In this document: positions 50,591 to 53,264 of the stretch, piece by piece
Layout: each line of letters opens with the position of its first letter
How positions within the stretch are numbered: position 1 is the first letter of the stretch
Assembly: GCF_963921235.1 (NCBI RefSeq)
Contig: NC_086108.1
Span: 51,028,001 to 51,092,000, forward strand
Length of the DNA stretch: 64,000 bases
Source of the DNA: Mobula hypostoma
Taxonomy: Eukaryota
Direction of reading: 5' to 3'
Position numbers and translations under genes: made by a program
The notes under the pieces: generated by a model
Database searches by the model: none
What the model was told of the DNA's origin: nothing
The model's input: the letters and a program-made list of their open reading frames with translations, nothing else

Positions 50591-50751
50591 CAAATTCCTT
50601 CTCTTGCGATCCAGCACCAACTTGATTTTCCCAGTCTTCCTGCATATTGAAATCCTCCATAATTATTATAACAGTATCTTTCTTACATGGATTAAAAATC
50701 AAAAATACATTAAAGACATGTATGTAATGTACTACTTAAACTTGGAATGTA

Positions 50752-51551
50752 CATATGTCCAAAGATAAGTTAGCGCGTTTTTACTCGCATATTAATCCTT
50801 TCTGTGATAGATGTTCGGGGCAGATAGCCTCTTTAACTCATATGTTTTGGTCTTGCCCTACTTTGGAAACTTTTTGGAGAGATATTTTCAATATTATTTC
50901 TAAGGTATTAAATATAGATATCTCTCCTCACCCTATTACTGCTATCTTTGGACTACCTAAAATTTCTAGTAATCTTTCCCCTTCAGCCCGTAGAATGATT
51001 GCATTTCTTACTTTAATGGCGAAAAGATGTATTTTACAACATTGGAAAGAGCTTAATGCTCCAACTACCTTTTTTTGGTTTTCTCAGACGATTTTATGTT
51101 TGAATCTGGAGAAAATTAGAAGTAACCTTTATGATTCTTCATTTAAATTTGAACAGATTTGGGGACCTTTTATTCGATATTTTCATTTAATGTAATATTT
51201 ACCCTTCTTGTTTTTTTTTCACTGTTTTAATGGAGGTCGGGATTGAGGACGTGATTTTAAGTTTAACTCTGTTTGGTTTCAAGTTAGCCCATTGCTTTGC
51301 TTTGCTTTTAGTTAGTTGCACGGTGGGTTTTTTTTGGGGTTTTTTTTTTCTTTTTTTTCCATTGATATATATAAAATCTAGTATACTATTATGTTATCTT
51401 GGTTTCTTATGCTTAAATTACATTGTTTGTAGTATTTTCTTTTTGGTATTGTTATCTTTTGGAATTTTATTATACTTTAACATTGTATTAATGTTTATAT
51501 GGCTTACCTTTTTTGTATACTTACTCAATAAAAAGATTTAAAAAGAAAGAA
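50752..51551 (+). mobile_element. 5'-truncated L1-clade LINE: ORF2 C-terminus, 3' UTR and A-rich tail
   Basis: Open ORF 50755-51195 with the Cys/His motif CDRC...LTHMFWSCP; T-rich UTR; tail aataaaaagatttaaaaagaaagaa. Confidence 0.85.
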
Positions 51552-52946
51552 GTTGTCTGGCTTGGGTCGAGCATTTTGGGTGGCCTTCCACAGGCTTCTC
51601 GCGGTGGGTTGCTGGAGTTTTGTTCCAGTCCTCCGGTCAGGGCTGGTGTGGCTGAGTCAGGTTTGAGGTCAGGGCTGTGTGATGGCCCCTCCAATACCTT
51701 GACTTTGTTGCCCTTAAGCAATTTTGCCACAACTTTGGAGGTATGCTTGGCATCATTGTCCATTTGGAAGACCCATTTGCAACCGAGCTTTAACTTCTTG
51801 GCTGATGTCTTGAGATGTTGCTTCAATATATCCACATAATTTTCCTTCCTCATGATGCCATCTATTTTGTGAAGTGCACCAGTCCCTCCTGCAGCAAAGC
51901 ACCCCCACAACATGATGCTGCTACCCCCATGCTTCACGGTTGGGATGGTGTTCTTCGGCTTGCAAGCCTCACCCTTCTTCCTCCCAACATAACGATGGTC
52001 ATTATGGCCAAACAGTTCAATTTTTGTTTCATCAGACCAGAGGACATTTCCCCAAAAAGTAAGATCTTTGTCCCCATGTCCCCATGTAGTCTGGCCTTTT
52101 TCTTTCTTTCTTCAATCTTTTTATTAAGTTTTCAATTAATAAACATAATAATGATACAAAGAGATCTGGATCACATTAATAACGGTTAATGTATACAGAC
52201 ACAAATTCTGAGTAAGATGTGTAACTTAAGCCTCCCAATCGCTTAATAATTGAACATGAAAAAGAATTTTTAAGCAGAAAAGCCCCTAAACTTAAAAAAA
52301 AACAAAAAAAGAACAAAACAAAACAAAGACTGGTCTGTCAAGTTCCGTCTGGCTTATTTATGCCAGTTTTGGAGCAGTGGCTTCTTCCTTGCTGAGCAGC
52401 CTTTCAGGTTATGTCGATACAGGACTCGTTTTATTGTGGATATAGATACTTGTCTGCCTGTTTCCTCCTGCATCTTCACAAGGTCCTTTGCTGTTGTTCT
52501 GGGATTGATTTGCACTTTTTGTGCCAAAGTACGTTCATCTCTGGGAGACTCTCCTTCCTGAGCGGTATGACGGCTGCGTGGTCCCATGGTGTTTATACTT
52601 GCGTACTGTTGTTTGTACAGATGAACGTGGTAACTTCAGGCGTTTGGAAATTGCTCCCAAGGATGAACCAGACTTGACATCATTTTCTGACCTCAATCCG
52701 ATAGAAAATTTGTGGGCAGAACTGAAAGTGTGTGCGAGCAAGGAGGCCTACGGGCCTGACTCGGTTGCACCGGTTCTGTCCGGAGGGCTGGAGTGGGGTT
52801 CCGGCGGCGTGCTGTGGGGGGCTTGTGGAGGGCCATCCGGGGTGTTTGGCCCAAGTTAAACAATTTAAAGGCAATGCTACCAAATACTAACAAAGTATAT
52901 GTAAACTTCTGACCCACTGGGAAAGTAATGAAAGAAATAAAAGCTG
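51550..52946 (-). mobile_element. Sleeping Beauty-like Tc1, fold-back derivative (5' end replaced by an inverted 3' end)
   Basis: Minus-strand transposase pieces KSGSSLGAISKRLKLPRSSVQTTVRKYKHHGTTQPSYRSGRR, PRDERTL..KVQINPRTTAKDLVKM and [36 protein letters not shown] run to 52676. The plus-strand 3' end (DLNPIENLWAELK...KQFKGNATKY* plus part of the TIR) starts at 52687. Confidence 0.9.
52098..52346 (-). mobile_element. Short L1 3'-end insertion inside the SB-like element
   Basis: Minus-strand aataaaaagattgaagaaagaaagaaaa tail; degenerate TSD gtctggc(c/t)t at ~52089 and ~52347. Confidence 0.7.
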
Positions 52947-53264
52947 AAACTTGGAATGTAATGGAATTCAAAATTAGCCATTATTTTCGTTGATGTTTGT
53001 ACAAACATTGTAAAAAATAATGCAATGAGTGAAATGGGTATAATTTTATCATTTCAATTTTTATTCAAAATTTAATCTGTCATCAGCCTAACAGGAACAA
53101 GCCACAAATTAAATGCAACTGTTCTTCTACAATGTAGAGGATAAAACTCTTCACAATTTTAAAGTTTGCTTGATTTTACTCTCTTTAAATTGTTTCAATT
53201 TCTTTAAAAATTGGCTGTTGTATCACACATTCTGTATGAATAGCTCCCTCAGTGATCCCTTGTC

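Follow-up and report, generated by a model that had tools for sequence, protein, structure and literature searches.

How does part of a DNA transposon come to lie directly behind the 3′ end of an L1 retrotransposon, within one target-site duplication (TSD), and why does it differ from its closest relative almost entirely by A-to-G changes? These questions are raised by positions 50738-52960 of the window, by which we mean the whole 64,000-nt stretch of DNA that was analysed (G000:C50:51,028,001-51,092,000). An earlier note on this DNA had proposed that an L1 nested in a fold-back Tc1 was transcribed past its own polyadenylation signal and carried the Tc1 sequence here as a 3′ transduction. That the locus records a single L1-type insertion event is borne out by one TSD and by an editing footprint. 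For the way in which the two parts were joined, 3′ transduction is the best account, although it is unproven.

The borders of the insertion can be placed precisely. A 14-mer at 50738-50751 is repeated exactly at 52947-52960, and these are its only two occurrences in the whole window; a search of the donor locus described below did not find it there. Both copies (+ strand) sit at homology boundaries, as expected of the single TSD that had been proposed to bracket the L1 and Tc1 parts together. The 5′ copy abuts the start of L1 homology at 50752, with 1 nt of microhomology to the L1 5′ breakpoint, and the 3′ copy abuts the end of identity to the donor Tc1 (52946-52949). An exact duplication of 14 bp lies within the ~10-20 bp expected around the whole insert after L1 target-primed reverse transcription (TPRT), and the TT preceding the 5′ copy creates a TT/AAA endonuclease-type site at 50736-50740, again as expected for this process. 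Contigs from public runs X21 and X22, which represent a single sample, possibly the assembly's own, span the 3′ junction (52898-53285) with zero differences.

The insert opens with the 3′ end of a young, 5′-truncated L1-clade element (801 bp, 50752-51552, + strand), comprising the end of ORF2, whose zf-RVT match (E = 0.002) is under the curated cut-off, and the 3′ UTR. On the same strand, AATAAA at 51527-51532 is followed by an (AAAG)n tail at 51540-51552. Comparison with the donor puts the joint between L1 tail and Tc1 at a TTT/AAATTG site, where the earlier note had located it, and base 51552 could belong either to the tail or to the Tc1 part as an edited base. From this site the left (antisense) arm of a fold-back Tc1 runs from 51550 to 51665 (+ strand) and stops at a donor-private deletion of ~59 bp, a size taken from BLAST coordinates. 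The hairpin loop (51666-52745, − strand) is near-identical to the donor and contains antisense Tc1 transposase fragments (DDE_3, E = 1.1e-08). Nested in it, and inherited from the donor, is an older L1-type 3′ scrap of 251 bp (52096-52346, − strand) with its own AATAAA, a (GAAA)n tail and a short flanking repeat. A fold-back junction at 52665-52699 (+ strand) marks a non-autonomous Tc1 subfamily. The right (sense) arm follows at 52746-52864 and its outer portion at 52865-52949 (both + strand), the latter holding AATAAA at 52936-52941. As had been described earlier, this signal is followed by 5 nt and then by the TSD, with no poly(A). The outer arm ends in 3 nt of microhomology with the target, since the first three bases of the 3′ TSD (AAA) are also present in the donor, and beyond these three shared A's there is none of the poly(A) that L1 TPRT would be expected to leave.

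Both TIR ends and the TA duplication expected from cut-and-paste transposition are missing from the window copy, and the Tc1 is therefore a passenger in this insertion. The element was already broken and non-autonomous, and from its left and right ends the window copy is missing ~250 bp and ~165 bp, respectively. The earlier statement that a DNA transposon had been mobilised is for this reason too strong: what the window holds is a partial copy with neither end.

A search with the junction identified one locus that matches the Tc1 part without gaps, at C62:61,453,412. Viewed as interval L002, this locus (C62) carries a complete fold-back Tc1 at L002:1252-3065, with two ~365-bp arms, TA on both sides, long TIRs with inner direct repeats and DDE_3 transposase fragments. 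The nested-L1 junction and the left-arm deletion junction each gave two matches in the assembly, one in the window and one at C62. Because these two markers are private to C62 and the window, C62 or an allele of it is, as judged by sequence comparison, the donor. The passenger is colinear with C62 and lies on the L1 sense strand, as expected for a 3′ transduction from a unique donor, and an unedited donor with complete TIRs had indeed been predicted. The DDE_3 fragments, TA duplication and long TIRs with inner direct repeats of the donor are shared with Tc1-family IR/DR elements, whereas the fold-back non-autonomous organization and, in the window copy, the lack of ends and TA duplication are not. 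The donor ends may resemble those of the Sleeping Beauty type.

The fold-back junction is common, with 657 matches at up to two mismatches and 0 for a reversed control, and 12 other family copies that were examined are mostly 86-94% identical to C62. Several features of the donor are observations in their own right. Its inner arms (L002:1493-1585 and 2733-2825) are identical and carry common private variants, and its outer arms differ by ~5%; the pattern, which adjoins the 59-bp deletion, resembles the outcome of gene conversion between arms or of template switching, and the homogenisation is older than the window copy. Transitions between the donor arms (L002:1252-1616 versus 2702-3065) are skewed in the direction opposite to that in the window (0 versus 10), and relative to the family letters the donor arms show seven T>C and two A>G changes, which are small numbers; this opposite skew could reflect minus-strand transcription. 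When the two termini are compared, the right one (L002:3060-3065) carries a substitution in its final bases, which suggests that the donor element is probably no longer mobile.

Alignment of the window with C62 over 1,400 bases reveals 47 differences, 44 of which are A>G and the remainder one T>C, one G>A and one T>G. One of the 44 (at 51552) may be L1 tail. Within the paired arms 43 of 68 A's are changed (18 of 29 on the left, 25 of 39 on the right), or 63%, against 1 of 320 elsewhere, the loop accounting for 1 of 283 and the outer right arm (52865-52946) for none of 37; the paired arms differ from the outer right arm with p = 5.9e-12. The changes are on one strand in both arms, and the predicted fold pairs these two arms with each other. 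At 42 of the 44 positions, A is the letter that family copies most often have. At the other two, 51580 and 51622, the family has G as well, but the window carries the other arm-homogenised variants of C62, so that these two are probably edits as well. The same picture emerges without a reference: mismatches between the window's arms number 40 of the + strand A>G type and 1 of the opposite type, compared with 4-10 versus 1-12 in other Tc1 copies (7 of 12 with both arms in view). The donor's AATAAA in the right arm, at window position 52792-52797, has been erased by A>G changes.

A>G changes that occur on one strand, in both arms and only within the duplex are the expected product of A-to-I editing of an RNA hairpin. 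Proviruses of avian retroviruses are said, in old reports, to be A-to-G hypermutated in inverted repeats. The 43 changes in the arms are likely to be ADAR edits made before the RNA was copied back into DNA. Because the footprint is confined to the duplex and to one strand, an RNA route for the insertion is nearly certain, and the combination of an RNA route with hairpin editing is strongly supported, as is the + strand RNA intermediate invoked in the earlier note. Neighbour preference is weak, with 27 of 36 A's edited after U or A and 16 of 32 after C or G (p = 0.045); after G the count is 6 of 12, against 37 of 56 after other bases (p = 0.33). Depletion of G 5′ of the edited A is given as a feature of ADAR editing (PMC2873906), and the weakness of the preference here may reflect near-saturation. 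Public-run contigs (4 of 24 runs) are no evidence either way on the G letters: none of those listed has the window G at 51601, 51603 or 52752-52754, with bins swamped by other copies and records filtered, and 52787 is uncovered in X21, X22 and X24.

The unedited outer right arm constrains the structure of the RNA. It is complementary to the donor left TIR, with four substitutions in ~80 nt, so that editing would be expected there in any RNA with both arms complete; nevertheless, none of the A's of the outer right arm is changed. At the time of editing the RNA therefore lacked the part of the left arm that lies upstream of the junction.

The L1 part belongs to a large family: a 25-mer from its 3′ end has 2402 exact matches in the assembly, and 30 copies taken without selection share 96-99.6% identity with the L1 part. 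On C2, a full-length family member shows 0 substitutions and two one-base T-run gaps over the 801 bases, and its tail letters match those of the window up to the junction; this copy was drawn from a list selected for a window-type tail, and ~60 of the 2402 family copies were compared. It measures 5.9 kb between 13-bp TSDs and has the ORF1 (Transposase_22) and APE-RT ORF2 (a 1306-aa stop-free frame with Exo_endo_phos, RVT_1 and zf-RVT) expected of an L1-clade driver. Since the window L1 has no private substitution relative to the copies compared, the insertion is young.

Most of the 30 unselected copies end in (AAAG)n-like tails that run into the TSD without poly(A), and a missing poly(A) is therefore normal for this family. 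The A-rich tail reported by the earlier note is present, although it is of this usual (AAAG)n type and is not a decayed poly(A). Eighteen accepted family TSDs, from which the short or misplaced candidates L037, L048, L055, L072 and L010 were excluded, are 10-18 bp long, are preceded by TT in 10 cases and begin with a purine in all 18; both the TSD length and the absence of poly(A) at our locus fit this family. In family copies with the 5′ end in view, every TSD found sat directly after the tail, and three copies that were re-examined had no distant TSD within ~1.5 kb, so transduction in this family looks uncommon. Two further observations concern other copies. In one (L090, G000:C1:39,772,138-39,775,162) the 5′ part is inverted, which is what twin priming would produce, and two others (L007 and L008, G000:C50:37,688,099 and 37,696,232) have identical 3′ ends and flanks 8.1 kb apart and are a tandem duplication or an assembly duplicate.

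We consider it probable, with considerable room for doubt, that the insertion is a 3′ transduction in which a full-length L1, residing in the Tc1 left arm on a C62 allele that the assembly does not contain, gave rise to an edited read-through RNA that was inserted by L1 TPRT. In the first step, the left arm of the C62 element would have received an L1 at TTT/AAA, and the transcript of this L1 would have passed the L1 AATAAA and continued through the Tc1. Such an RNA would hold only the left-arm part downstream of the L1 and would form a 116-bp hairpin; the footprint seen in the DNA corresponds to deamination of 63% of the hairpin A's, presumably by ADAR, and the 82 nt beyond the hairpin would have been unpaired and so unedited. 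The observed junctions suggest that priming from the nicked target then took place at three A's within the RNA, immediately beyond the Tc1 AATAAA, and that the enzyme may have copied the inosine-rich hairpin and 801 nt of L1 before stopping, leaving the 14-bp duplication. The L1-bearing C62 allele would be polymorphic, lost or unassembled.

This sequence of events has the merit that an L1 at the junction, driving its own transcript, would explain in one step the absent outer left arm, the strand, the order of the parts and the TT/AA junction; in the left arm, sites of the latter type make up 5 of 365 positions and 5 of 22 A-run starts. A young L1 family is likely to be polymorphic, and in humans truncated L1s are described that carry transduced sequence from a source missing from the reference, under the name 'proxy elements' (PMC13009371). 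Against 3′ transduction stand the absence of the source L1 from C62, the lack of a sibling, the apparent rarity of transduction in this family, the weak neighbour preference of the edits and the end of the insert 5 nt after AATAAA. Cleavage is placed 10-30 nt after the polyadenylation signal, with 79% of ends conforming (PMC13009371). The end here, 5-8 nt past AATAAA, is nearer than this range, and internal priming must therefore be assumed.

Of the predicted source, the unedited Tc1 was found, whereas the L1 inside its left arm was not found in the assembly. C62 is intact at the TTT/AAATTG junction, at C62:61,453,411, in the one assembled allele, and no family L1 lies in C62 61,435,000-61,472,000 (~37 kb around the donor). 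Searches of the whole assembly for the L1-tail/Tc1 junction, in edited and unedited form, matched nothing but the window. Sibling transductions, also predicted, were not found in assembly searches with private markers and junction patterns. The two private markers together with a third, right-arm marker recovered, besides the window and C62, only a single unrelated copy (91.7%), and two degenerate patterns for edited Tc1 copies matched only the window; the sensitivity of these patterns, simulated on 21 real family arms, was 0.67 at 63% editing, 0.32 at 40% and 0.07 at 20%. A paralogous empty site gave no match, and no empty-site or L1-only joint was among the 15 public-run joints listed (289 others; 4 of 24 runs). 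Two ways of reconciling C62 with a source L1 were rejected. Erasure of the L1 from C62 by arm gene conversion is unsupported, because the window has the same arm-homogenised non-A variants, and splicing from an upstream L1 finds no family L1 within ~37 kb and no AG before the junction. A Tc1 without the L1 had been named as a sign of independent insertions. That state is found at C62, yet independence does not follow from an L1-free donor, since both the single TSD and the editing footprint point to one event.

A rival reading is a chimera. Reverse transcription would have begun at the target on an edited C62 RNA that started near the junction, and the L1 enzyme would have gone on to switch template to an L1 RNA at its 3′ end; alternatively, the C62 and L1 RNAs had been ligated beforehand. 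We regard this as unlikely, although as the most serious competitor. On this view no L1 was ever in C62, and the 5′ end of the C62 RNA would be its own start site or a cut inside the inverted repeat. C62 without an L1 and an assembly without a source are then as expected, and no missing allele is needed. Both passenger ends lie inside inverted repeats, with 2-3 nt of A-rich microhomology. The ORF-intact L1 on C2, which lacks any substitution relative to the window L1 part and shares its tail letters, also fits this reading, although this match is not diagnostic, as it comes from the tail-selected list and the limited comparison described above. SOS splicing cuts RNAs inside paired ITRs and RTCB rejoins them (PMC12779559), and ligation and template switching are both accepted origins of L1 chimeras (PMC11838501). 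In described chimeras, however, it is the foreign RNA that comes first, on the 5′ side, and the L1 3′ end that follows, the opposite order to that found here (PMC11838501). A chimera also requires priming in trans on a non-L1 RNA, a + strand C62 RNA that lacked the outer left arm before editing, and a TT before the junction by chance (5 of 22 A-run starts). The fuller version of this idea, in which there was no source L1 and a hairpin RNA was cut in both inverted repeats by a process like SOS splicing, hyper-edited by ADAR and then attached 3′ of an L1 RNA, through ligation or an end-to-end template jump, before germ-line insertion, strikes us as improbable. Had no source L1 existed, the locus would be an L1 chimera of reversed order and a DNA record of transposon-excising RNA processing, and ADAR fossils might be findable genome-wide through the asymmetry of arm-versus-arm mismatches.

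Far less credible is a pair of insertions, the L1 with its 14-bp TSD coming first and an edited Tc1 cDNA being captured later between tail and 3′ TSD through AAA microhomology. In keeping with this scheme, the donor has AAA at each end of the passenger segment, the target has AAA too, and no L1 lies in the donor. The passenger, however, has no TSD of its own and would have had to land exactly at the boundary of tail and TSD; an RNA without the outer left arm is still needed; and the L1 part, lacking private substitutions, leaves little time for a second event. Least credible of all is an origin without any RNA step, by DNA-level duplication and later mutation or by misassembly of a hairpin, for although the G letters come from the assembly alone, the changes are of one type, on one strand, in both arms and end at the duplex ends, the longer C62 hairpin in the same assembly has no such + strand changes, the TSD and cut site are of L1 type, and the 3′ junction is spanned without differences by public contigs, possibly from the assembly's own sample.

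Returning to 3′ transduction from an L1-bearing C62 allele, the locus can be set beside known systems. It resembles L1 partnered 3′ transduction in having a 5′-truncated L1, a tail and then foreign sequence within one TSD at a TT/AA site, an end near a downstream AATAAA and a source not in the reference; it differs in that the source L1 is postulated, there is no terminal poly(A), the end is 5 nt after AATAAA, the L1 is non-mammalian with (AAAG)n tails, and the passenger is a hyper-edited hairpin (PMC13009371). Clustered one-strand A>G changes within a long inverted-repeat duplex are shared with ADAR hyper-editing of Tc3 ITRs (PMC12779559) and of Alu pairs (PMC4982230), but here the changes are in a genome assembly beside an unedited donor, not in transcripts, and neighbour preference is weak. 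APOBEC footprints fixed in genomes are known for LTR elements (PMC4866542; PMC2873906). They too are host deaminase footprints in an integrated copy that are read against an unedited relative, whereas our changes are A>G and not G>A, depend on structure, came by a non-LTR route and are in a DNA transposon passenger, with the L1 part unedited (PMC4866542; PMC2873906). The U6/L1 chimeras likewise combine two unrelated sequences within one TSD through the L1 machinery, with the difference that here the L1 is 5′ and the foreign RNA 3′ (PMC11838501).

A literature search of titles and abstract starts, with incomplete coverage, found neither an ADAR-hyper-edited retrocopy fixed in a germ-line genome nor an L1-transduced Tc1, and a 2016 review describes the role of ADAR editing in retroelement (Alu) evolution as undetermined (PMC4982230). 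Each component process is already known, and the scope is one locus, with no sign of function and no sibling found. What the locus offers is a natural before-and-after pair, an unedited donor and the germ-line copy of one heavily edited RNA molecule, in which the footprint maps the duplex ends of the RNA. If this interpretation is correct, RNA carried by L1 is a substrate of ADAR in the germ line or early embryo, an inosine-rich hairpin of 116 bp can be copied to its end by an L1 reverse transcriptase, and edits made in RNA, ~43 in one step, can become heritable changes in DNA. The arm-asymmetry count (40:1) provides a reference-free screen for further cases, and the fold-back non-autonomous Tc1 subfamily, with its 657 junction matches and ~365-bp arms, is a large pool of potential dsRNA hairpins.

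With respect to a host gene, five window ORFs that did not look like repeats had no Pfam match. The window contains other elements of related kinds. At 11393-12926 there is a Tc1-type element of a different family (DDE_3) with inverted arms of 267 nt at 91% and 158 nt at 89%; its arm mismatches are symmetric and give no sign of editing. An inverted repeat at 2327-3180 has ~285-nt arms that are 91-95% complementary around a 287-nt spacer, and its mismatch types (14 versus 6) show no clear skew. Finally, a young non-LTR element at 27654-31162 (− strand), which we take to be CR1-like, has a 1006-aa stop-free endonuclease-RT frame with a GDSL/SGNH esterase ORF upstream.
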